DNA of 16,966 nucleotides, taken from IMG/VR virus record IMGVR_UViG_2703718855_000004; one strand, given 5' to 3'. Position 1 is the stretch's first letter, and every line of letters begins with the position of its first letter. Below, one piece after another: positions 1-15,548 of the stretch. The translations under genes and the position numbers were made by a program. The DNA is from a virus. Lineage: Duplodnaviria > Heunggongvirae > Uroviricota > Caudoviricetes. Under the pieces are notes generated by a model. The model saw only the letters and a list, made by a program, of their open reading frames with translations. It ran no database searches and was not told the DNA's origin.

Positions 1-279
1 TCAGTATCTCGATAAGCGCAGAGAAATGATGCAGTGGTGGGCGGATTGGCTTGATGAAAAAGTGGAGTAATCCGGACCGTACTTCTTTATCCAGGCATAA
101 AGGCTGTGGGTGGTGATATCGAGACGTGTTGCAACGCTGGCAACAGAATAACCGCGATCAACAACCTGTTTGACTGCTTCAGTTTTAAACTCTTCGGGAT
201 AACGCTTACCGCTCATGGGCACCTCTCTTTAAGCCATCTTAAATGACTCTGAGGTGTCTGTTAAACCCGTGGCGATTCA
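1..279 (-). mobile_element. IS3-family insertion sequence, 5' end only: terminal region plus OrfA N-terminal helix-turn-helix fragment (ORF 1..222)
   Basis: ORF 1..222 translates to MPMSGKRYPEEFKTEAVKQVVDRGYSVASVATRLDITTHSLYAWIKKYGPD..., the HTH N-terminus typical of IS3-family OrfA. After about codon 51 (near nt 70) the frame no longer looks like the family. Read on the minus strand, the sequence upstream of the ATG begins TGAATCGCCACGG at nt 279, an IS-end-like TG terminus. Confidence 0.55.
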
Positions 280-772
280 AAACTGCGTGTTACGTTCGCC
301 CTGGACTGTTGCGATCGTGAAGCCATAGACTGGGCCGCAAGCACGGGAGGTTACGATAAAGCGACAGTGCAGGATGTCATGTTAGGAGCGATAGAAAAAC
401 GCTTTGGCGATAAAGTACCGGAACAGTCCATCCAGTGGCTGACAGATAACGGTTCAGCGTATAGAGCGCATGAAACATGGCAGTTCGCCAGAGAGTTGAA
501 TCTGGAGCCCTGCACAACGGCAATCAGCAGTCCTCAGAGTAATGGAATGGCAGAAAGGTTCGTGAAAACGATGAAGGAAGACTACATCGCGTTCATGCCG
601 AAACCGAATGTAAGAACGGCATTGCATAATCTTGCAGTGGCGATCGAACATTACAATGAAAACCATCCGCACAGTGCGTTGGGTTATCGCTCTCCGCGAG
701 AATATCGACGTCAGCGGGTAACGTTAACTTAAGATACACCCCCTGTCTGGAAATAAGGGGGCAAGAACAATG
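280..772 (+). mobile_element. IS2-like (IS3 family) element, 3' portion: 5'-truncated transposase OrfB (C-terminal part of DDE core) plus right terminal inverted repeat
   Basis: In-frame translation from nt 280 (ORF track 367..732) gives ...[17 protein letters not shown]...[11 protein letters not shown]...[37 protein letters not shown], resembling the C-terminus of IS2 InsD. Downstream TGTCTGGAAATAAGGGGGCAAG resembles the IS2 right end. The N-terminal part with the first catalytic Asp is absent. Confidence 0.65.
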
Positions 773-773
773 A

Positions 774-1526
774 TCAGATTCCCTGGTGAGTAAGAATTTT
801 ACTTTCTGAACTGCTCTGAGAGTATTGACTTGGAGAAACACCAAAATAACGTCTAAATACATAAGTAAAGTATGAGACACTGGCATAACCACAGACCTTA
901 GCTACTTTACTAATAGGATAACAACGAGTGCTGAGTAAATATTCAGCCATTTGCATCCTCTCATCAAGTATGATCTTACTGAATGATACCCCCTCTTCTT
1001 TCAATTTCCTCTTTAGTAAACTTTCGCTGAGATATAATCTTGATGATATATCCTTAAGACGCCATGGTGCAGATAAATCCGTATGAATAATCGTTTTAAC
1101 TTTAGCCCCTGTGCTTTTCAAACATTCAAACAGAAATACTCCAAATTGTTTTTCAGAAGAAAATGCAGAGAGACATGTAAAAGCAATAGACTCATCAAAA
1201 ATTTCTATGTATTCAGCACAGTGATTAGCCCAACTAATTAATCCTTTAATTAAACTGAAGTCAGCAAAGTTTATTTTTAAATAAGATGGATATTCCCTAC
1301 AATCAGAAATATCCCTTAAGTTATTAGCTTTCAAATAGCGACTAATAAACTCAGCGCCAAAATCCGCCACTATCACTCTTTCAGGATATGTCAGGAAAAA
1401 ATCTCTAGAGCTAGAGTCGACAAGTACAGATGAACCTCTCTCCAGAAACACACTCTCTTTTCCGAAATAAACATCAAAGGACTCCAAAATCAATATAACT
1501 GAACATGTAGTTGCCATATCATCCAC
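774..1526 (-). CDS. AraC/XylS-family transcriptional regulator, YdeO/AppY/GadX-like
   Basis: 250-aa ORF. The C-terminus ...PWRLKDISSRLYLSESLLKRKLKEEGVSFSKIILDERMQMAEYLLSTRCYPISKVAKVCGYASVSYFTYVFRRYFGVSPSQY is the two-HTH AraC DNA-binding domain and aligns by eye with E. coli YdeO/AppY. The stop lies 2 nt from the IS2-like right end. Confidence 0.8.
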   Translation of the reverse strand: MDDMATTCSVILILESFDVYFGKESVFLERGSSVLVDSSSRDFFLTYPERVIVADFGAEFISRYLKANNLRDISDCREYPSYLKINFADFSLIKGLISWANHCAEYIEIFDESIAFTCLSAFSSEKQFGVFLFECLKSTGAKVKTIIHTDLSAPWRLKDISSRLYLSESLLKRKLKEEGVSFSKIILDERMQMAEYLLSTRCYPISKVAKVCGYASVSYFTYVFRRYFGVSPSQYSQSSSESKILTHQGI

Positions 1527-2101
1527 CCAACTTAACTGAAACCAGGATGAAGTATATGCATATAAAGTTCACTTTGCCAAACTTCAGTATAAAAAACCAC
1601 ATAAAAAATAGGGTGTGATAAAAAATACCGTAACAATAAAGCAAAGGATTATAAATTCCGTTACAGTTACAAATGATACTCAAGAAACAATTCCTTAGGA
1701 AAAACTTATTTACAGCCAATAAGTAAGACACTTATATGATATCAAGTTTTCATAAAACATAACTAGGCTAAATAGCTGCGCCTAATACCGCTACACTTTT
1801 GCCAGCCCATGTTTGCCTCCGGGTATTGACCCCTTCTCTACGCAACTTCAGTTCCCACCACCAACTTTGCGGCAGCTTTGTAGGATCAATGTCTAAAAGA
1901 ATAATGGTGACCGATAAGAAAACGACTGAATAACTGCAAATTTTCGCTCAAAACCTTCCTGTCAGATCCATAGCGAATCAAGTGCTGAATGTCACAGTAT
2001 CGAACAGAAAACAGTGACGATCTAACCCTTCAAGAATATTCTACGATTGTTCTGTTTAGGAAAAGCAAGGCGGGAAGTCGGGAGATAAGTCATTGATAAA
2101 G

Positions 2102-2163
2102 TGGCGGAGAGAGGGGGATTTGAACCCCCGGTAGAGTTGCCCCTACTCCGGTTTTCGAGACCG
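2102..2163 (-). tRNA. Partial tRNA-Ser(CGA): 3' 62 nt only (anticodon stem to CCA), an att-type remnant rather than a functional gene
   Basis: The minus strand reads CGGTCTCGAAAACCGGAGTAGGGGCAACTCTACCGGGGGTTCAAATCCCCCTCTCTCCGCCA. This matches the anticodon loop (CGA), long variable arm, T-arm and acceptor 3' end of E. coli serU-type tRNA-Ser. The 5' acceptor and D-arm sequence is absent (the adjacent sequence is unrelated). Confidence 0.8.
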
Positions 2164-2906
2164 ATGATACAGAGTCGAAAAATCAAAGAGTTAAAAATTT
2201 TTCTTGGAATAAATGTCTTTAAATCGTACACGAAAAATCAATGAATTACATAACATTAAAGAAGAATATTCCAAGCCTTCTTGAGGCTACCACCTGTTTT
2301 CAGGTGTCATTCAGACGTGATTTGCCCCAGATTGGGAAAGCACGCTTTTTTCTCAGCTATCGTCCTCTTATTTTGCCGTTACATTTCTTTTTGCACTCTA
2401 ATGATTAATTTACAATAATAATATCGGTAATTATTGAGTAATAATAAATTGATTATTGCAAATGTAATTTAATTCCATCTTAGCGTTATATTCCAATCTT
2501 TAATCTCCGCATGGAACAAGTTGCATGCGTGACTATATTAAGACAACTTATAACCACCAAAACATTTGCTTTGCAAGCAAAAACAGTGACCATTGACTCT
2601 AAGAAAATTCCGATCTATTGTTAGGGTCATCAAAGTTACTTAACAGTATTCCGAAATGAAAATACAAAGCAAGCTAATTGTCTTATTAAACATTATTATT
2701 GCATTTATATTATTTGAGCTTTTAGCTCAAAAATTTGGTTTGAGTACATTATTTTAAAGCAAGGTAAACAATATCGGGCACTCTAGTTTTTATAATTAAC
2801 AATTAAACGTCCATAAAATGTTATTTACTTTTCTTCGCTATTGTCACATCTTAATATAGTGGCTTACGCCACTCTACTTTCATCACATTTTGTACGTTTA
2901 TGTACT

Positions 2907-2938
2907 CGCCATGAAGCTCTTTCATGGCGATTTTTATT
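2907..2938 (+). terminator. Rho-independent terminator-like hairpin with no gene upstream
   Basis: CGCCATGAA-gctct-TTCATGGCG, a perfect 9-bp stem, followed by ATTTTTATT on the plus strand. It sits in AT-rich DNA with no ORF of 60 aa or more. Confidence 0.45.
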
Positions 2939-3021
2939 CTTAATCCAAGAACATACTCCCTATCTATAGCAAAATCACTTTTTGAACAAAAGAATAACGT
3001 ATTTAGGTAATCATTACGAAT

Positions 3022-3603
3022 TTACCCTATAGGTGCTACTGGCCATTCAATATCCTGTGCAGTTGACGTATCAACACGGTTCAGCAATACCCGATACTTT
3101 TTCCAGGCTTCCAGCAACAAGGTTTCTTCCTCCGTTGCGATTTCCAGATCCACAGCATCCTGAAGCGGCGCTATATGCTCACTGGCTACCTGCATCAGGC
3201 TGTTTTTTGTTTCTTCCACCTCCCGGATCCGGAACAGTTTTTCTGCTTCCGTATCCTTCACCCAGGCTGTGCCGTTCCACTTCTGAAACTCCCCTTCCGG
3301 GGATAACCAGGTAACATTTTCCGGTAATGAGCCGAGTTCAGAAATAAATAACGCGTCCCCTGATGCCACGTCATAAACTGTTTTACCCCGATGGTCTTCA
3401 ACAAGATGCCACGATGACTCATCACTGTTGAAAACAGCCACGAAGCCAGCCGGAATATCTGGCGGTGCAATATCGGTACTGTTTGCTGGCAGACCTGTAT
3501 GAGGCGGAATATATGCATCACCTTCACCAATAAATTCATTAGTTCCGGCCAGCAGATTATAAATTTTTATGGTCCGTGGTTGTTCACTCATTCTGAATGC
3601 CAT
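3022..3603 (-). CDS. tfa: Tail fiber assembly protein Tfa (lambda-type)
   Basis: 193-aa [47 protein letters not shown]... is collinear over its full length with lambda Tfa as I recall it. Confidence 0.9.
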
Positions 3604-3848
3604 TAACCAACACGGGCAGACTTCACCACATTCACCTCGCGGATGTAGTCGCTGCCCATCGCATTCATGATGGCCCGCTGAAAGGGCAGTGTTTCCCAGC
3701 GCCCTTCCTGGTATGCGGATTCTTTCGGGAGATAGTAATTAGCATCCGCCCATTCAACGGCGGTCTGTGGCTCCGGCCTGAACAGTGAGCGAAGCCCGGC
3801 GCGGACAAAATGCCGCAGCCTGTTAACCTGACTGTTCGATATATTCAC
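3603..3848 (-). pseudogene. Terminase large subunit (gpA) N-terminal fragment, about 81 codons, stop overlapping the tfa start
   Basis: [81 protein letters not shown] matches the first ~81 residues of lambda gpA, then stops. The stop and the tfa ATG overlap (TAATG). The rest of A and all head and tail genes are missing. Confidence 0.85.
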
Positions 3849-6633: not shown

Positions 6634-7095
6634 CTATCTGCACTGCTCATTAATATACTTCTGGGTTCCTTCCAGTTGTTTTTGCATAGTGATCAGCCTC
6701 TCTCTGAGGGTGAAATAATCCCGTTCAGCGGTGTCTGCCAGTCGGGGGGAGGCTGCATTATCCACGCCGGAGGCGGTGGTGGCTTCACGCACTGACTGAC
6801 AGACTGCTTTGATGTGCAACCGACGACGACCTGCGGCAACATCATCACGCAGAGCATCATTTTCAGCTTTCGCATCAGCTAACTCCTTCGTGTATTTTGC
6901 ATCGAGCGCAGCAACATCACGCTGACGCATCTGCATGTCAGTAATTGCCGCGTTCGCCAGCTTCAGTTCTCTGGCATTTTTGTCGCGCTGGGCTTTGTAG
7001 GTAATGGCGTTATCACGGTAATGATTAACAGCCCATGACAGGTAGACGATGATGCAGATAACCAGAGCGGAGATAATCGCGGTTACTCTGTTCAT
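6634..7095 (-). CDS. rzpD: i-spanin Rz (inner-membrane spanin subunit)
   Basis: 153-aa product [55 protein letters not shown]... has an N-terminal TM segment and coiled coil. The start was chosen at MNRV, 4 codons inside the ORF-track start. It overlaps the endolysin 3' end. Confidence 0.85.
6693..6875 (-). CDS. rzoD: o-spanin Rz1 lipoprotein, embedded in the +1 frame of Rz
   Basis: 60-aa [63 protein letters not shown], with lipobox VVGC and a proline-rich body, lies entirely inside Rz in another frame. Confidence 0.8.
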
Positions 7096-7589
7096 TGCTG
7101 ACCCCACAAACAGATTTCACGCTCAATCTCACGACGAGTCATGAGACCTTTCCATTGCTTACCGCCAGCATATGTCCAGCGACGTAGCTGATCACATGCG
7201 CCTTTGATATCGCCCTGGTTTATTTTGCGAAGAAGCGTCGATGTTCTGAAATTGCCAGCACCCACGTTGTAAACGAATGAGTAAAGAGCGCCGCGCGTTG
7301 TTTCCGGTATATCGACTTTGATGTACGGGTTAATTTGTCTGGCGACAGTGGCAAGGTCTTTATTCAAGAGTGCTTTGCATTCTGCTTTGGTATACGTTTT
7401 ACCGAGCATGATGTCTTTTCCGGTGTGTCCGTGACATACAGTCCATACGCCAACGATATCTTTGTATGGTACGTAGCTGACACCTTCCAGACCATCGTTA
7501 CCACTTGGGCCAGTAATTAACACTGATGCTATAGCAATTGCTCCGCCACCAATAGCAGCAGCAACGGCTTTTCGTAATGATGGAGGCAT
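7092..7589 (-). CDS. rrrD: Endolysin (lysozyme R) with N-terminal signal-anchor-release-like hydrophobic segment, phage 21-type
   Basis: 165-aa [78 protein letters not shown]... has a Gly/Ala-rich N-terminal hydrophobic stretch and a lysozyme domain. Its start overlaps the holin stop. Confidence 0.9.
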
Positions 7590-7804
7590 TATTCACCTCT
7601 CGCAGCCTTGCGCTTATCTTCTTTAATCTTGAAATAAAGGTTTGTCAGGTACGTCAGCAGGCCAAATACCAGGCTACCCAGCACACCTATTGCTGCCCAC
7701 TGTGAGGGCGTGACTTTATCGAGCAGCTGTAAAAACCAGTAACCGGCACTACCTGCTGAGGTGCCATAGGCGACACCCGTTGTTAACTTATCCATGGATT
7801 TCAT
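7589..7804 (-). CDS. essD: Holin, phage 21 S-type (pinholin class), with dual-start motif M-K-S-M
   Basis: 71-aa product [71 protein letters not shown] with two TM segments. The ORF track extends upstream to 7849; I chose the MKSM start. Confidence 0.85.
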
Positions 7805-7930
7805 AACCCCACCTCGCAGACAAAGCGGGTGTAAATTGAGGGAATACAACGTATCGCAAAAAAGCAGAAACGTAACAGACTCGGAGTCAGTGAATAACTC
7901 AGGTATTGGGTTATCAGCTAATATCGAGAC

Positions 7931-7965
7931 TCAAAAAATGGAAAAACCCGCTCGACGGCGGGTTT
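7931..7965 (-). terminator. Rho-independent terminator upstream of the holin; candidate tR' of the late operon
   Basis: The minus strand reads AAACCCGCCGTCGAGCGGGTTT followed by TTCCATTTTTTG (stem ACCCGC/GCGGGT). It lies about 130 nt upstream of the holin start, where lambdoid phages place tR' between pR'/qut and S. Confidence 0.45.
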
Positions 7966-8390
7966 AAGCTGTGTGACGAAGTAACCACTCTTAACAGCAT
8001 AACCAATTTTTTACGTACGTAAACCACTAAATGATATTTGCGAGAATGCTACCGAGTATTGAAAACACCACTACAAATACATAAGCAAATCTCAACAAAT
8101 AACCAACAAATAATTTCCAGCGTTATTTTAGCTGGTTTAAATTGAATCTTCAAATTATAGAGCACTTATAAATAACAGCCATTAATATAAATTGGCTAAT
8201 AGATTTATTTTTATTCAGCCAAGAGCCATGAATAGGATTCGATAGAAAAAGTTCAGATAAAAATAGAGATCTACTTCACAAATCAAATGAGAAACCAAAA
8301 CTTACATCTTGAAATAATCACATTGATTAGATGAATATTTATCGCGCAGTGACATCATTTTTTAATAATAGTTCAAAAAAAGGGCTCACG

Positions 8391-9473
8391 ATGAAAAAAT
8401 TAACAGTGGCAATTTCTGCTGTAGCTGCATCAGTACTGATGGCGATGTCTGCTCAGGCAGCTGAAATTTATAATAAAGACAGTAACAAGCTGGATCTGTA
8501 CGGGAAAGTTAATGCTAAGCACTACTTCTCCTCTAATGATGCAGATGATGGTGATACTACTTATGCCCGTCTTGGCTTCAAAGGTGAAACCCAAATCAAC
8601 GATCAACTGACTGGTTTCGGTCAGTGGGAATATGAATTCAAAGGCAACCGCGCTGAATCTCAAGGTTCCTCCAAAGATAAAACCCGTCTTGCCTTCGCTG
8701 GCCTGAAATTCGGTGACTACGGCTCCATCGATTATGGCCGTAACTACGGTGTAGCATACGATATTGGTGCATGGACCGACGTTCTGCCAGAATTCGGTGG
8801 CGATACCTGGACCCAAACAGATGTATTCATGACTGGTCGCACCACAGGTGTTGCAACTTATCGTAACAATGACTTCTTTGGTCTGGTTGATGGTCTGAAC
8901 TTTGCTGCTCAGTATCAGGGTAAAAATGACCGCACTGACGTAACTGAAGCTAATGGTGATGGTTTCGGTTTCTCCACTACTTATGAGTATGAAGGATTCG
9001 GTGTAGGTGCAACCTATGCTAAATCTGACCGCACTAATAATCAGGTTATCTACGGTAACAACAGCCTGAATGCATCTGGTCAAAATGCTGAAGTATGGGC
9101 AGCTGGTCTGAAATATGATGCGAACAACATCTATCTGGCTACCACCTATTCTGAAACCCAGAACATGACTGTTTTTGGTAATAACCATATTGCCAACAAA
9201 GCACAAAACTTCGAAGTAGTTGCACAATATCAGTTCGACTTCGGTCTGCGTCCGTCCGTTGCTTACCTGCAATCTAAAGGAAAAGACTTGGGTGCGTGGG
9301 GTGATCAGGACCTGGTTGAATATATTGATGTAGGTGCAACCTATTACTTCAACAAAAATATGTCCACTTTTGTTGATTACAAAATCAACCTGATTGATAA
9401 GAGCGATTTCACGAAAGCATCTGGCGTTGCTACCGATGATATCGTTGCTGTAGGTATGGTTTACCAGTTCTAA
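8391..9473 (+). CDS. nmpC: General porin of the OmpC/OmpF/PhoE family, prophage-encoded (NmpC/Lc-type), apparently intact
   Basis: 360-aa product [23 protein letters not shown]|[23 protein letters not shown]... has a signal peptide, the porin N-terminal motif, and a C-terminal ...GMVYQF with terminal Phe typical of OM beta-barrels. The start was chosen at 8391, not the ORF-track 8331. Confidence 0.9.
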
Positions 9474-9636
9474 TTTGATTACTAAAAGATATGTTGCGGG
9501 AGGCTTTGCCTCCCCAACATATAAGTGGCTCCCTCAAGCCACTTCCTTTAGGAGCACAACCTTGCTTCTAACTATATAAACCTTCTGTTATATATTACCC
9601 TTTATTTTTGGGGGCGTCTCAACGCCCCATTTTTAA
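9474..9636 (+). ncRNA. Structured 3' region downstream of the porin gene; possible IpeX-like small RNA (tentative)
   Basis: Three consecutive hairpins: ATGTTGCGGGAGGC-tttg-GCCTCCCCAACAT (9491..9520), AGTGGCT-ccctca-AGCCACT, and the terminator GGGGCG-tctcaa-CGCCCC plus ATTTTT. A porin-regulating sRNA (IpeX) is reported at the 3' end of nmpC in DLP12. The identity is from memory and the ends are not mapped. Confidence 0.3.
9603..9636. terminator. Bidirectional rho-independent terminator between convergent nmpC and Q genes
   Basis: TTATTTTTG-GGGGCG-tctcaa-CGCCCC-ATTTTT: a GC stem flanked by T-runs on both strands. Confidence 0.65.
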
Positions 9637-9661
9637 TAATTTTTAGTAAACAATTGGCATA

Positions 9662-10045
9662 TTAATTAGAGTTATTAACAACGATATCCATCTCTAACCG
9701 GATATCTAATGCCATTAACATCCCTTCAATTATACCCTCAGCCTTCTGTAACCTTTTCCCGATATAACCATCAGAGCAGCAATGCTTACCTGCCAGTGAC
9801 ATGAATGTCATACCGACTACATAATAATCTACTAATAAATCGTGCAAATCGCTGTTGTTCTTTTTCAGACGGGCCATGCACCCGCAAATGATCATCGCGT
9901 CATCGTCACAACATTGCGGGCGAGATTTTACTTTTGAAGTAATTAATCCCTTAAAACCGGCGGCAATGGACGACCAGGTCACATCTTCATGATTATTAGC
10001 CGCCCACGCTCCCCAACGCTCAAGAACCATCTGAATATCACGCAT
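9662..10045 (-). CDS. quuD: Late-gene antiterminator Q (phage 82/21-type, QuuD-like)
   Basis: Product [71 protein letters not shown]... (127 aa from the second Met; the ORF track starts 5 codons upstream). It has Cys-rich zinc-binding motifs and sits downstream of rusA as in DLP12. Confidence 0.85.
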
Positions 10046-10130: not shown

Positions 10131-10253
10131 TCATACTCCTGCTCCTGTCAGGGTTTTGGCGTAATTCCTCAGTATTCGGTAATCGGTCAAAACAGAACTG
10201 GGGAAACGATATAAGCGCAGGCGCATCCAGCGGTGGCGAAGAAGTTCTGCCAT
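10131..10253 (-). CDS. Small ORF between rusA and Q (YlcG-like position)
   Basis: My translation: MAELLRHRWMRLRLYRFPSSVLTDYRILRNYAKTLTGAGV (40 aa), below the ORF-track cutoff. Called on position only. Confidence 0.35.
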   Translation of the reverse strand: MAELLRHRWMRLRLYRFPSSVLTDYRILRNYAKTLTGAGV

Positions 10254-10267
10254 ATTAAACTCAAACA

Positions 10268-10630
10268 TCATTCATTCCCCATTTCGGTGATGGTCAGTTC
10301 CAGCCTCCCACCTTTGGTAACAGGCATCTTCACAACGCGGTAATCAACGACCTGAGCATCATCCAGCCAGAAACCTGCTTTGGTGAGTGCGTCAAAAGCG
10401 GCTTTTTGCAGATTATCCAGGTCACGGCGACGGCGATCCGGCATGTGGCACTCAATACGGATTTTCACTGGCATAGCCAGGCCGATATCCAGCATTGCGT
10501 TTTTAATGATTCGGGTGACGTTATCGCGGTATGCCTGCCCTTCTGCGCTGATGTGTGTGCGCCCGCGATTATGGCGGTAATAGCGATTATTGCTCGGAGG
10601 CCAGGGTAATGTGATGCTGTAGGTATTCAC
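10268..10630 (-). CDS. rusA: Holliday-junction resolvase RusA
   Basis: 120-aa [123 protein letters not shown] matches RusA. Confidence 0.92.
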
Positions 10631-10917
10631 GCCTTAATAACCCCCTCTTTCAGCCAGATAACCTGTGTTCTCGCCATACCTTCCAGCGCGCATTCTTTTG
10701 CATATGCAGCATCGACAAAATGTGTGCGGCGGTCGATTTCGTCGTGGCAGGCAGAACATGCAATGGTGGCAATCAGGTCTGGCGGTTTCGTACCGGTGCC
10801 GCACAATCCAGTCAGCCGGATATGTGCCAGTACAGACGTTTCAGGGTTGCCATTACATACGCCAGGGATTCTTACCTGGCATTCCCGACCACGCGCTGCT
10901 TTTCTCAAATCAGCCAT
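10627..10917 (-). CDS. ybcO: Nin-region protein YbcO (DUF1364, Cys-rich putative nuclease)
   Basis: 96-aa product [64 protein letters not shown]... (start 13 codons inside the ORF-track start). It overlaps rusA by 4 nt. Confidence 0.85.
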
Positions 10918-11072
10918 GACTCCTCCTTGCTGCCAGTCGCAACCATTTTTTATCAACCAGGCTGGCGGTATATCCGAGCAGTGTTGGTATTTCGGAAGGC
11001 TTCAGCTCCGGTTTACGCTTACGACGATTTGGTACTCTGTAGATGTGTCCGTTCATGACACGAATAAGCGGT
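10902..11072 (-). CDS. ninE: NinE protein
   Basis: My translation: [56 protein letters not shown] (56 aa). Its 3' end overlaps the ybcO start by 16 nt. Confidence 0.75.
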
Positions 11073-11079
11073 GTAGCCA

Positions 11080-11535
11080 TTACGCCTCCTGTTTGTCGCG
11101 GAGCTGCTGGAACTCGCAGCTCTGCGGAATAGTCAGGTGGCAGCCAATATTCACCGCCCAGGCTTCAACCTTACACAGGAAGATATACATCTCTCCGGTA
11201 TCAAGATCGGAGGTATGGCGTAACGACTGGATAGTAGTGATTTCGCCGGTTACGACATCAACCAGGTCCTTGGTTTCATAACCGAGGTATGTGTGTTTGA
11301 GAGCATCTTTTACCCATGCTGCGGTAGCGAACGATTTCCCCCTGCTGATGAGGTATTCACTGATTTCGCTGTACCACATGTGGCTGAGTGCATTCTGGGA
11401 AAGACTGCGTTTCTCACGCCACGGTTTAAGCACCATGCGAAAGCATTTTCCGTCCTCCAGATAAGGCTGGATCTGCTGGCCGATAGCGGTGAAGTTACCG
11501 CGATGCAGTTTGATGCCATCTTGTGGTAGGTTCAC
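11080..11535 (-). CDS. ybcN: NinB-family recombination protein (YbcN-like)
   Basis: 151-aa ORF containing ...[20 protein letters not shown]..., comparable to the R-x-RSLDQN motif of lambda NinB. It heads the ninE-ybcO-rusA cluster. Confidence 0.8.
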
Positions 11536-11725
11536 GCTTCACCTCCGCAGAGGTCAGACGCTGGATGCAAAAAATCGCAGGTGCATTTCTGCATCTGTGA
11601 AGGGAGAAGAGAGTTTGGATTGTATGTGCGCATAAACGTCCCCGTTTAGCGCAGAAGTCACCGGAGTTGTTCAAGCTCCGATGACTTTATTATTACGAAT
11701 TGATTTTACAAAATCAAAAGGTATG

Positions 11726-12178
11726 TTAGTGACGCGGGTCTGTTATTATGCGAGAAGGGTTTCCGTATAAAACAAGGACCTTACTTCCTTGAGTAAATAA
11801 CGGATCTTTGCCTTGAACAATGGTCATTAAATTCCCATTCTCAGTTTCGACAACATATTCCATGCCTGTTTGTTTTGTTGCTGAAGATTCGATTGCTGCC
11901 CCGGCAATACCACCAATGACTGCACCACCAACGGCACCAACGATATTAGAACGAACTCCCCCACCAAGCGCAGAACCAGCGGTTGCCCCCACGGCAGCCC
12001 CAGCAGTCCCGCCTAACGCGGAAGTCCCACTGATATCAACCCCCCTAGCACTAATAACTGTACCAGCGATAGTTCGATTAACCATGCCCACAGAGCCAAC
12101 AGAATAACTATTTGGCGATATATTTTGTGCGCATCCAACCAACACTAAGAGTGGAGCAATTACGAATAATCGCTTCAT
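11726..12178 (-). CDS. Outer-membrane lipoprotein with glycine-zipper domain, SlyB/Pcp-like
   Basis: 150 aa. Signal peptide with lipobox LVGC, then a long Gly/Ala zipper (GGTAGAAVGATAGSALGGGVRSNIVGAVGGAVIGGIAGAAI), then a C-terminal segment GMEYVVETENGNLMTIVQGKDPLFTQGSKVLVLYGNPSRI that aligns by eye with the E. coli SlyB C-terminus. The start overlaps the upstream gene's stop (ATGA). Confidence 0.8.
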   Translation of the reverse strand: MKRLFVIAPLLVLVGCAQNISPNSYSVGSVGMVNRTIAGTVISARGVDISGTSALGGTAGAAVGATAGSALGGGVRSNIVGAVGGAVIGGIAGAAIESSATKQTGMEYVVETENGNLMTIVQGKDPLFTQGSKVLVLYGNPSRIITDPRH

Positions 12179-12735
12179 TTAGCTACCCTAACAGGAAACA
12201 TTGGACGAGAAAGATCAACACTTTCTAATGCTTGCAAGAACTGCGTTATGTTGTTTTGCACCGCGCGATTAACAGATTCGCGTGCTCGAACAATACCGTA
12301 GAATGCGTAACTGGCTGGAACAGTACCGGTAGACTCAATATCCTGCGTATATATAATATCACCATTCGCACGGTTGATTATTTCATACCTTGCAATTGCT
12401 TTAGTTGTCATTGAAACACCAAAAGCAGGAACGTCAAGAGCCAACACTTTAACATTTAAGCTAACCGTATTTGGTGAACTATCACGAAAAATAGTCATTC
12501 GGTCGAGTGCTTCCTGCAAAGATTCACGCCAAATTGGAGTTATAGCCTCCATACCAGCAGTGATATCCCCTTTCTGCTCATCTGGACGAGCAAGTGATAC
12601 CGTTAATGACTTAATTTCAGCATCTATTTTTTTCTGGCTAACTCCCACGTTAGGTGTTGAAAAATTCAATGGTGGCACACTAGCGCAACCTGTTAAAGAA
12701 CCAATAATCATGGCTAATAATATTATCTTCTTCAT
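12175..12735 (-). CDS. Uncharacterized lipoprotein, first gene of a two-gene lipoprotein operon
   Basis: 186 aa. MKKIILLAMIIGSLTGC|ASVPP... has lipobox LTGC and a Shine-Dalgarno-like AAGG 8 nt upstream. I recognise no family. It is translationally coupled to the SlyB-like gene. Confidence 0.75.
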   Translation of the reverse strand: MKKIILLAMIIGSLTGCASVPPLNFSTPNVGVSQKKIDAEIKSLTVSLARPDEQKGDITAGMEAITPIWRESLQEALDRMTIFRDSSPNTVSLNVKVLALDVPAFGVSMTTKAIARYEIINRANGDIIYTQDIESTGTVPASYAFYGIVRARESVNRAVQNNITQFLQALESVDLSRPMFPVRVAK

Positions 12736-12991
12736 AAATTTACCTTATTGTTATAACCAAAGGAATTATAAAGTAAAAAAGTTCACTATCACTAGCCATT
12801 AACGACATCAATTTCAGAGAAACATGGTACTCATTTCCACAAATTTGACACAAGTCATTTTCACCTACATATTCCATCATACTTGATGCATATGTTATTG
12901 AAGCCTCTATCCTATCCGTTCATAATAGCAATAGTTACCCGGGTGATAGTACCTCTATGATTACTCGTCTTTCTGATTGATTGGATTAAAT

Positions 12992-13183
12992 ATGCGCGCC
13001 AAAATTTATCAACTTTCGTTATGGATATTTATTTCGTTTCTAGCGATCTATGCCTTTATTATCTATAAAGGTTCTTATATTGGAGTAGCATTGCATCAAA
13101 TTGCTTGGATCATCATTATTGCCTCTGGCTTGATTGCTAGGCTAACTAAACCAAAGCAAAAACCAATTTCGTCCAATAATTAG
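12992..13183 (+). CDS. Small hydrophobic ORF with two predicted TM helices (hypothetical)
   Basis: 63 aa from the ATG at 12992: MRAKIYQLSLWIFISFLAIYAFIIYKGSYIGVALHQIAWIIIIASGLIARLTKPKQKPISSNN. The ORF track starts at 12977 on a non-ATG codon. There is no convincing RBS, and the surrounding DNA is AT-rich and divergent from the lipoprotein operon. Confidence 0.3.
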   Translation: MRAKIYQLSLWIFISFLAIYAFIIYKGSYIGVALHQIAWIIIIASGLIARLTKPKQKPISSNN

Positions 13184-13340
13184 ACATGTATTAAAAAAAT
13201 GATATTTTTATGTACATAGTCTATTGAAAATTGCCGCGATAAAATGCCAACACCCGCTTCATCGCGGCACTCTGGCGACACTCCTTGAAAATCAGATTCG
13301 TGCTCACCTTTCCTTCCCGTTCTTCCCTGGTAGCGAACCG

Positions 13341-13789
13341 GTAATCATCCGATCTGCGTTACCGAGTGGATGGATGAATGCCGCCGCGAACCATTCAAAA
13401 CCCGCGAAGGCAGAGAAATTACGGGGCCGTGGCAGTCGCATCCCAAACGGATGTTACGGCATAAAGCCATGATTCAGTGTGCCCGTCTGGCCTTCGGATT
13501 TGCTGGTATCTATGACAAGGATGAAGCCGAGCGCATTGTCGAAAATACCGCATACACCGCAGAACGTCAGCCGGAACGCGACATTACTCCGGTTAACGAT
13601 GAAACCATGCAGGAGATTAACACTCTGCTGATTGCCCTGGACAAAACATGGGATGACGACTTATTGCCGCTCTGTTCCCAGATATTTCGCCGCGACATTC
13701 GCGCATCGTCAGAACTGACACAGGCCGAAGCAGTGAAAGCTCTTGGATTCCTGAAACAGAAAGCCACTGAGCAGAAGGTGGCAGCATGA
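13341..13789 (+). pseudogene. bet: bet (Red-beta recombinase), 5'-truncated; only the C-terminal ~149 codons remain
   Basis: From about 13341 the frame reads (G)NHPICVTEWMDECRREPFKTREGREITGPWQSHPKRMLRHKAMIQCARLAFGFAGIYDKDEAERIVENTAYTAERQ...KVAA, matching the C-terminal part of lambda Bet. There is an in-frame stop at 13331..13333 and unrelated sequence upstream. Confidence 0.85.
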
Positions 13790-14466
13790 CACCGGACATT
13801 ATCCTGCAGCGTACCGGGATCGACGTGAGAGCTGTCGAACAGGGGGATGATGCATGGCACAAATTACGGCTCGGCGTCATCACCGCTTCAGAAGTTCACA
13901 ACGTGATAGCCAAGCCCCGCTCAGGAAAGAAGTGGCCTGACATGAAAATGTCCTACTTCCACACCCTGCTGGCTGAGGTTTGCACCGGTGTGGCTCCGGA
14001 AGTTAATGCTAAGGCGCTGGCATGGGGAAAACAGTACGAGAACGACGCCAGAACCCTGTTTGAATTCACTTCCGGCGTGAATGTTACTGAATCCCCGATC
14101 ATCTATCGCGACGAAAGTATGCGCACCGCCTGCTCTCCCGATGGTTTATGCAGTGACGGCAATGGCCTTGAGCTGAAATGCCCGTTTACCTCCCGGGATT
14201 TCATGAAGTTCCGGCTCGGTGGTTTCGAGGCCATAAAGTCGGCTTACATGGCCCAGGTGCAGTACAGCATGTGGGTGACACGAAAAGATGCCTGGTACTT
14301 TGCCAACTATGACCCGCGTATGAAGCGTGAAGGACTGCATTATGTCGTGGTTGAGCGGGATGAAAAGTACATGGCGAGTTTTGACGAGATGGTGCCGGTG
14401 TTCATCGAAAAAATGGACGAGGCACTGGCTGAAATTGGTTTTGTATTTGGGGAGCAATGGCGATGA
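13786..14466 (+). CDS. exo: Lambda exonuclease (Red-alpha), full length
   Basis: 226-aa [68 protein letters not shown]...GEQWR is collinear with lambda Exo over its full length, with only a few substitutions from the recalled sequence. The start overlaps the bet stop (ATGA). Confidence 0.95.
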
Positions 14467-15548
14467 CGCATCCTCACGATAATATCCGGGTAGGCGCAAT
14501 CACTTTCGTCTACTCCGTTAACCTTTATATAAGAAACAATGGATATTACTGCTACAGGGACCCAAGGACGGGTAAAGAGTTTGGATTAGGCCGAGACAGG
14601 CGAATCGCAATCACTGAAGCTATACAGGCCAACATTGAGTTATTTTCAGGACACAAACACAAGCCTCTGACAGCGAGAATCAACAGTGATAATTCCGTTA
14701 CGTTACATTCATGGCTTGATCGCTACGAAAAAATCCTGGCCAGCAGAGGAATCAAGCAGAAGACACTCATAAATTACATGAGCAAAATTAAAGCAATAAG
14801 GAGGGGTCTGCCTGATGCTCCACTTGAAGACATCACCACAAAAGAAATTGCGGCAATGCTCAATGGATACATAGACGAGGGAAAGGCGGCATCAGCCAAG
14901 TTAATCAGATCAACACTGAGCGATGCATTCCGAGAGGCTATGGCTGAAGGCCATATAACAACAAACCCGGTCGCAGCCACTCGCGCTGCAAAATCAGAGG
15001 TAAGGAGATCAAGACTTACGGCTGACGAATACCTGAAAATTTATCAAGCAGCAGAATCATCACCATGTTGGCTTAGACTTGCAATGGAACTGGCTGTTGT
15101 TACCGGGCAGCGAGTTGGTGATTTATGCGAAATGAAGTGGTCTGATATCGTAGATGGATATCTTTATGTCGAGCAAAGCAAAACAGGCGTAAAAATTGCC
15201 ATCCCAACAACATTGCATGTTGATGCTCTCGGGATATCAATGAAGGAAACACTTGATAAATGCAAAAAGATTCTTGGCGGAGAAACCATAATTGCATCTA
15301 CTCGTCGTGAACCGCTTTCATCCGGCACAGTATCAAGGTATTTTATGCGCGCACGAAAAGCATCAGGTCTCTCCTTCGAAGGGGATCCGCCAACCTTTCA
15401 CGAGTTGCGCAGTTTGTCTGCAAGACTCTATGAGAAGCAGATAAGCGATAAATTTGCTCAACATCTTCTCGGGCATAAGTCGGACACCATGGCATCACAG
15501 TATCGTGATGACAGAGGCAGGGAGTGGGACAAAATTGAAATCAAATAA
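14457..15548 (+). CDS. int: Lambda-type integrase (tyrosine recombinase) with replaced N-terminus: 22 codons matching the start of lambda orf60a are fused in frame to Int from about residue 16
   Basis: 363-aa [25 protein letters not shown]|[27 protein letters not shown]... After the junction (nt ~14520) it is near-identical to lambda Int and retains the catalytic residues (R in VTGQRVGD, K in SKTGVK, H-x-x-R in [10 protein letters not shown] and Y in [11 protein letters not shown]). The start overlaps the exo stop. Confidence 0.88.

Follow-up and report, generated by a model that had tools for sequence, protein, structure and literature searches.

We examined a 16,966-nucleotide (nt) stretch of DNA (hereafter the window) that is 100% identical to the chromosome of Escherichia coli VG48B2 (NZ_CP128584.1, 1382101-1399066, reverse strand) and that carries a short lambda-like prophage remnant between ybhC on one flank and ybhB and bioA on the other; the gene calls, including these flanks, were taken from the RefSeq annotation of that accession. 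The remnant holds a gene for a Q-type late antiterminator (quuD), a late promoter and terminator unit (pR'-tR') and a lysis cassette comprising essD, rrrD, rzpD and rzoD. This is probably a standard lambda-like late switch and lysis cassette of the PA-2/PhiR30_1/DLP12 type that has survived in a young, deletion-crippled prophage and that is silent because Q is starved of transcription. The integrity of the genes, the homology of the promoter unit and the deletion were all observed in the window itself. An intact Q and lysis cassette in a lambdoid remnant lacking a repressor is already known, being the classical situation of DLP12 that has been studied in E. coli K-12. The useful outcome of our analysis is a map of the late promoter and terminator, of the deletion that silences Q, and of the sigma-E start described in K-12 relative to these elements (Table 1).

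Late switch and lysis cassette

QuuD matches the complete PF06530 profile (positions 1-118 of 118, E=3.5e-53), falls in PHROG 79 ('anti-termination protein Q-like') and is thereby a member of the Q family. It is 78% identical to the Q protein of the Shiga toxin (Stx) phage 933W up to residue 120, beyond which the two proteins diverge. The Q protein of phage 21 (Q21) belongs to the same Pfam family and its structures (6p18 and 6jnx) give a distant match (E=7.6e-7), which is weak, extends over 80 residues and leaves the window protein 35 residues the shorter. Because of this weak match the DNA site is expected to differ, and the candidate Q site in the window is an inverted repeat whereas that of Q21 is a direct repeat.

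The lysis genes are likewise of phage 21 type. EssD belongs to the P21 holin family (PF04971, 'P21 holin S', E=2e-35), shows two hydrophobic stretches and begins with MKSM, so that methionines 1 and 4 provide the two starts of a pinholin; the 434B copy of the gene is annotated as encoding an S71 antiholin and an S68 holin of class II. Residues 1-165 of RrrD align end to end with PDB entries 4zpu (RrrD) and 3hde (E approximately 1e-111), with two conservative substitutions relative to 4zpu. The lysozyme chain of 3hde, to which the window endolysin is nearly identical, we take to be R of phage 21. A Gly/Ala-rich signal-anchor-release (SAR) segment at the N-terminus of RrrD precedes the lysozyme domain, as in SAR endolysins. 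RzpD covers the full PF03245 profile (E=2.6e-54), is 97% identical to its K-12 counterpart and 99% identical to that of phage PhiR34_1, and has one change specific to the window lineage. RzoD, which lacks a RefSeq annotation, matches PF06085 (E=2.8e-20), carries the lipobox VVGC with Cys20 and is 97% identical to K-12 RzoD. An Rz with an embedded Rz1 bearing a lipobox cysteine makes up a two-component spanin, with the caveat of a substitution in the RzoD signal peptide (L15Q) that is lineage-specific in comparison with K-12 and the viable phage PhiR34_1 and is the sole blemish in the cassette. The region is a member of the Q933W/Q21-family late switch, phage 21-type pinholin, SAR endolysin and embedded-spanin families.

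A preceding sequence-only reading of this DNA had listed Q, tR', a dual-start pinholin, a SAR endolysin and nested Rz/Rz1 genes, all apparently intact. Each was confirmed in position and on the minus strand, with full-length family matches for all of the genes. The same reading had singled out inactivating mutations in Q or the holin as damaging to its case; alignment shows that both proteins are 100% identical to those of K-12 and of the viable recombinant phage 434B. This outline of the region stood as far as the gene set is concerned, but it had missed the separation of the late promoter from Q by an antisense porin gene.

Table 1. Features of the late switch, the lysis cassette and the region upstream of Q (positions are those of the window)
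Feature	Position	Strand	Basis
quuD, Q-type late antiterminator, 127 residues	9662..10045	-	Pfam PF06530 Phage_antitermQ
Porin gene (nmpC/lc type), intact, antisense to Q	8391..9473	+	Pfam Porin_1; annotated porin OmpC
Three stable hairpins between porin stop and quuD stop	9490..9628	+	terminator scan
pR' -35 hexamer TTTACG (8023..8018) within perfect palindrome TTTACGTACGTAAA	8010..8023	-	homology to 933W pR'
pR' -10 hexamer TATGCT; start at about 7989	7996..8001	-	six-phage alignment
Invariant block TAAGAGTGGTTAC around start site	7981..7993	-	13 of 13 bases identical in six phages, flanks differing
tR' candidate, stem-loop AAACCCGC-CGTCGA-GCGGGTTT and T run	7933..7965	-	terminator scan
essD, pinholin, 71 residues, dual starts (S71 from 7804, S68 from 7795)	7589..7804	-	Pfam PF04971
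rrrD, SAR endolysin, 165 residues	7092..7589	-	PDB 4zpu, 3hde; Pfam Phage_lysozyme
rzpD, inner-membrane spanin (Rz)	6634..7095	-	Pfam PF03245 Phage_lysis
rzoD, outer-membrane lipoprotein spanin (Rz1), nested in rzpD in another frame	6693..6875	-	Pfam PF06085
Sigma-E-like motif GAACT-16 nt-TCACT	8348..8374	-	at the published K-12 'essDp' start position (about 8342)
nin operon upstream of Q: ylcH-like open reading frame, ybcN, ninE, ybcO, rusA, ylcG	10131..11633	-	annotation
Stable hairpin, conserved in K-12, between the cargo genes and the start of the nin operon	11656..11686	-	fold
Cargo genes (lipoprotein 12735..12175, glycine-zipper protein 12178..11726) and promoter	11726..12792	-	annotation, promoter scan
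Deletion scar: 'ren 13343..13221 (-) abutting recT' 13343..13789 (+), both without N-terminus	13221..13789		annotation

The pR'-tR' unit (8023..7933, minus strand) lies 185 nt before essD. We place pR' after the porin gene because of its homology to the 933W unit and the alignment of six phages. The corresponding annotations of 933W (pR', qut and the first terminator) overlap one another beyond the end of its Q gene, and this stretch can be aligned base for base with positions 8024..7942 of the window. The 83-nt core of pR' was found in approximately 280 Stx-phage records and, in the annotated ones among those listed, is located at the 3' end of Q. The regulatory region as a whole (8040..7920) is 100% identical to phage Kati, 99% identical to other phages and approximately 99% identical to the promoter region of DLP12 in K-12. 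QuuD therefore has a cognate late promoter with a downstream terminator, situated 1.65 kb from Q and not abutting it, to which candidate binding and pause elements can be assigned. The -35 and -10 hexamers, the start region and the first hairpin of the Stx phages (933W and Sakai Sp5/Sp15, the source of StxS) are all homologous to those of the window, but the surroundings differ: in the Stx phages there is overlap between the unit and the 3' end of Q, and tRNA and stx genes come after it, whereas in the window the porin insertion intervenes on one side and the lysis genes follow directly on the other.

The -35 hexamer is part of a palindrome, TTTACG-NN-CGTAAA, that occurs once in the window (0.04 copies expected). 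It is shared by the window, 933W and PhiR55_1; the six aligned phages fall into two classes upstream of the promoter, and the other class has a different palindrome at this position. From its sequence, the palindrome is a candidate Q binding element. The -10 pattern is TAnnnT in five of the six phages and CAnnnT in the sixth. In the Sakai Stx phages the homologous start has been mapped by differential RNA sequencing (dRNA-seq), 258 nt upstream of a 3' end mapped by Term-seq (tR'), and the homologous Stx-phage promoter has been described as constitutively active in lysogens. In 933W coordinates the Sakai start corresponds to the GAG equivalent to 7990..7988 of the window; transferred through the alignment, it predicts a start at about 7989 and a leader of approximately 50 nt that ends at the hairpin. 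The invariant block around this start probably contains a sigma-dependent pause signal, as its conservation suggests. A search for the pause hexamer within the first 15 transcribed bases yielded weak candidates only (TACTTC, 7983..7978).

The tR' candidate combines a stem-loop (7965..7944) with a T run that extends to 7933. Folding of the leader predicts this hairpin, which is conserved in the six phages, and its 933W counterpart is annotated as a possible terminator after pR'; the terminator scan and this conservation with 933W bear out the earlier tR' call at 7931..7965. The second terminator found at +258 in Stx phages and the StxS 3' fragment of the Stx leader are absent from the window, and the scan gave no further terminator between the hairpin and essD. 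With no second terminator in the window, the hairpin at 7965..7933 is the only tR' candidate. In the same region, a 1986 GenBank record of PA-2 annotates a CRP binding site over the first 20 transcribed bases of pR' (7989..7969 in the window, minus strand). This segment, GTGGTTACTTCGTCAC, forms an imperfect inverted repeat with little or no variation among the six phages, and it could serve as a protein site, an RNA hairpin or a pause signal. Further downstream, DLP12 of K-12 has a deletion of 16 nt between tR' and the start of essD relative to the window and PA-2, at approximately 7888..7873 on the minus strand.

The porin gene that sets Q and its late promoter apart matches the full Porin_1 profile (E=3e-153) and occupies the position of lc in phage PA-2 and of nmpC in K-12; it is intact in the window and disrupted by IS5 (nmpC::IS5) in DLP12. 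The insertion of the porin gene into the gap between Q and its promoter also replaced the final residues of Q. The hairpins that follow the porin stop codon fold with energies of -13 and -40 kcal/mol (z-scores of -2.2 and -5.9), and the last of them (9611..9628) has its T run on the plus strand, which fits a porin terminator and not tR'. In lambda and 933W, pR' directly follows Q, but the equivalent stretch of the window (9661..9480) contains no convincing promoter and its hairpins fit porin terminators, so that a pR' at this position was rejected. Besides the phages with a porin gene, PhiR55_1, Stx1_499 and SfIV have a gene on the opposite strand just ahead of their pR' element (window counterpart, 8391..8024); that of PhiR55_1 sits directly between Q and the element. 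This suggests that the Q-pR' gap is a recurrent insertion spot for cargo genes.

Loss of the early region and the supply of Q

There is no cI, cro or N in the RefSeq annotation of the window, and the unannotated open reading frames tested gave no repressor-, Cro- or N-like family match. What remains at this point is a junction between two truncated genes, recT' and 'ren, and the Pfam match of the window RecT covers the C-terminal part only. PhiR30_1, a viable phage and the one relative that was examined in full, shows 100% identity to the window across ren and cargo genes; in the comparison from 12700 onwards the identity stops at 13345, and between the two junction points PhiR30_1 carries bet, gam, kil, cI, cro, cII, O and P, all of which are lost in the window. 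The junction and the PhiR30_1 map together indicate that one deletion took the whole early control and replication region, in agreement with the previously noted absence of cI, cro, N and an early promoter region. NCTC9104 shares this junction but still has int and xis, as well as a longer portion of the terminase and tail region, so that the two other deletions of the window (at 3604/3605 and 14519/14520) must be more recent.

Q closes the long rightward unit of PhiR30_1, cro-cII-O-P-ren-cargo-nin-Q. With pR and N lost, quuD is left without a dedicated promoter. The nin operon upstream of it is tightly packed and co-oriented with quuD, and its gene order is that of DLP12 in K-12 and of PhiR30_1. 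Work on rusA has indicated that the ybcN-rusA operon of DLP12 requires a promoter supplied by an insertion sequence (IS) for adequate expression. In the window, a sigma-70-like promoter (12792..12765, a 10/12 match in the promoter scan) lies ahead of the cargo genes, which point towards Q. It is the best local candidate source of residual transcription towards Q and lends plausibility to the earlier suggestion that a cargo-region promoter feeds this gene. The cargo genes have PHROG and Pfam matches, the lipoprotein has the lipobox LTGC, and the same genes are found between ren and ninB in PhiR30_1. Between them and the nin operon, the hairpin at 11656..11686 is highly stable (-20.7 kcal/mol, z=-3.3, no shuffled sequence equally stable) and conserved in K-12, with a poor T run. 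It is a possible terminator between the cargo genes and Q, and perhaps the equivalent of lambda tR2. The statement in the sequence-only reading that what drives or restrains Q is unclear was thus too strong, given the deletion of pR and N, the block at tR', the need for an IS promoter in K-12 and the control by Q, RpoE and Hha reported in the published K-12 work.

The proposed mechanism, in which the site bound by Q, the pause element, terminator efficiency and the promoter feeding Q are inferred, would operate as follows. The sigma-70 promoter pR' would fire constitutively, and most of its transcripts would end at the hairpin after approximately 50 nt. QuuD, once made, would bind near pR', possibly at the palindrome, and load onto the paused polymerase, allowing read-through into essD, rrrD and rzpD/rzoD. 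The pinholin would then depolarize the membrane, releasing and activating the SAR endolysin, and the spanins would break the outer membrane. As the last gene of the nin operon, quuD is normally fed by pR with N antitermination, and the deletion from bet/recT to ren removed pR and N along with cI, cro, O and P. Even with some Q present, tR' would act as a second block on the lysis genes. Residual low expression could come from the cargo promoter, from the sigma-E-type promoter reported in K-12 at about 8342, or from leakage through the hairpin.

Distribution, age and competing explanations

Of 5,426 complete E. coli genomes, 2,196 (40%) carry the 3.4-kb module of Q and lysis genes as a single piece. 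In three genomes sampled across the range of identity, the module was in every case within a prophage with a repressor, a Cro-like protein, replication genes and head genes, and all three encode an identical EssD protein. At least 35 phage genome records also carry the module, with 95-99.9% DNA identity; among the viable phages PhiR30_1, PhiR34_1, ev243, mEp332 and PA-2, the Q gene, antisense porin, pinholin, SAR endolysin, spanins and bor occur in the same order as in the window. The presence of the module in complete prophages and phage records indicates that it circulates in active phages. The window differs from NCTC9104 by approximately four substitutions over 17 kb, and neutrality predicts less than one substitution (approximately 0.4) in the 1.5 kb that encode Q and the lysis proteins. 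The lineage is therefore too young for neutral decay to show, and the intactness of the genes is uninformative as to selection. Hence the earlier description of the cassette as 'kept', with its implication of selection, lacks support, and we caution against reading domestication into the intactness of genes in a young prophage remnant.

Domestication is nevertheless the explanation that the K-12 literature brings to mind, namely that the host keeps Q and the lysis genes under its own stress regulators, sigma-E and Hha, and exploits weak expression of them for cell-wall turnover, curli and biofilm formation or vesicle control, and that selection preserves them. K-12 cells from which the cassette has been deleted produce more vesicles, the cassette reacts to changes in pH and osmolarity, and the toxicity of Hha overproduction depends partly on rzpD; the earlier assertion of DLP12 lysis gene expression with effects on the envelope thus has the backing of published work. 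The K-12 cassette paper cites earlier work in which the cassette is controlled by a Q-like protein, RpoE and Hha, the identical K-12 QuuD being reported there as a regulator. In addition, a sigma-E-like motif is found in the window at the position of the mapped K-12 start, and the several large deletions and IS insertions in this lineage struck other parts of the prophage and not the Q and lysis genes. We reconstructed the position of this start ('essDp') from the primers of the K-12 cassette paper, its '-121 to +650' reporter fragment and the 99% alignment to K-12. The motif is, however, no more frequent in the window than by chance (three matches against 1.7 expected), and the start at about 8342 lies approximately 350 nt upstream of pR' and the hairpin, so that sigma-E transcripts must still cross tR'. 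Conservation requires no host selection when the same sequences occur in complete prophages and phage records, and less than one substitution would be expected in these genes under neutrality. On balance, domestication appears unlikely. Another proposal, which we hold to be doubtful, is that the true Q-responsive promoter of the DLP12/PA-2-type module is the sigma-70 pR' (8023..7989) and not the sigma-E essDp, with the short pR' leader produced constitutively in many E. coli strains. If this were true, one hairpin, possibly a leaky one, would gate two distinct inputs, the host transcripts from sigma-E and those modified by Q, and a leader of approximately 50 nt, made constitutively by some 40% of E. 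coli strains, might function like StxS as a small RNA. The reconciliation of pR' with essDp is the sole point at which a small new insight may be possible.

Two further explanations were weighed. The module could be inert in its host and serve as spare parts, being rescued by recombination into superinfecting lambda-like phages that carry it on. Lambda qsr' recombinants were the original evidence for DLP12. In phage 434B, a block annotated as '434 nonhomology' has an IS5-disrupted nmpC as in DLP12, the Q and the holin of this phage are identical to those of DLP12, and the flanking nin and bor-ybcV regions are common to many phages and would offer homology for exchange. This support comes from other phages, and rescue would account for the spread of the module but not for the tolerance of the host towards it; as an explanation in its own right, rescue is improbable, and it is compatible with a surviving late switch deprived of Q transcription and not an alternative to it. 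The cassette could also look intact and be functionally dead through subtle lesions, such as a weak pR' and the L15Q change in Rz1. The lineage-specific changes in RzoD and RzpD and the imperfect consensus of pR' point in this direction, but the identity of the regulatory region to that of Kati and other phages, and of Q and the holin to working copies, makes a dead cassette very improbable. Moreover, spanins are dispensable for killing in lambda lysis, so that a spanin defect would not disarm the cassette.

The reading that we prefer, a standard late switch and lysis cassette silenced by want of Q transcription, has several points to contend with. The pR' promoter matches the sigma-70 consensus at 8 of 12 positions and was missed by the promoter scan. 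In Stx phages, the transcript reads through the homologous first hairpin to the second terminator at +258, and the window hairpin (7965..7933) may be a weak, leaky stop. The K-12 papers place the Q-responsive promoter at the sigma-E site, approximately 350 nt upstream of the pR' unit. The L15Q substitution in RzoD also counts on this side. Finally, the mapped start site and the activity of Q come from other strains.

Identity and remaining features of the prophage

The interval between ybhC and ybhB, which we take to be the attachment site of phage lambda, distinguishes the window prophage from DLP12, which is integrated at argU with intD. Gene content and order from ylcH/ybcN to nohD, including quuD, nmpC, essD, rrrD, rzpD and borD, are shared with DLP12; the DLP12 gene names in the window annotation stem from protein homology. 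DLP12 is likewise without annotated cI, cro and N and without intact replication genes. Relocation of DLP12 was considered and rejected, as the AraC-family regulator and the cargo genes differ (lipoprotein genes upstream of the nin operon in the window, emrE-ybcK-ybcL-ybcM in K-12) and PhiR30_1 is the nearest relative across ren and cargo. The window prophage is a decayed PhiR30_1/PA-2-like element at the lambda attachment site, and not DLP12.

Its late genes are all on the minus strand. The element is a defective lambdoid prophage on several counts: the recT'/'ren junction, the absence of xis, and a truncated gene for the large terminase subunit that abuts a tail-fibre assembly gene, the head and tail genes between them being absent from the annotation. 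Compared with NCTC9104, the junction at 3604/3605 marks the loss of 2 kb of terminase and tail-protein sequence; a terminase N-terminal fragment here adjoins the tail-fibre assembly gene, similar to the aaaD/tfaD arrangement of DLP12 in K-12. The junction at 14519/14520 reflects a 3-kb deletion relative to NCTC9104 in which xis and several small genes were lost. It lies within a reading frame (14457..15548, plus strand) in which approximately 19 first residues of a DUF1317 gene are fused in frame to an integrase without approximately 14 of its N-terminal residues, and RefSeq names the 363-residue integrase fusion product 'DUF1317 family protein'.

A small unannotated open reading frame between ren and the cargo genes (12977..13183, plus strand), on the strand opposite to both, encodes an apparently very hydrophobic product without a family match. 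PhiR30_1 has a small hypothetical gene annotated at this position, likewise opposite to the ren strand, and the product could be a small membrane peptide or toxin. At the other end of the prophage, the AraC-family regulator (774..1517, minus strand) is 29% identical to AppY, and this end matches the appY end of DLP12. Next to it lie 1.5 kb of AT-rich DNA (1518..3021, 28-40% G+C) without an annotated gene or family match. An Rfam scan of the whole window gave no match in the Q-lysis region and one to IS009 (3062..3260, minus strand, 218 bits against a gathering score of 117) within the tail-fibre assembly gene (3022..3603). At the border between prophage and chromosome beside ybhB (70..732), there are remnants of IS transposase genes.

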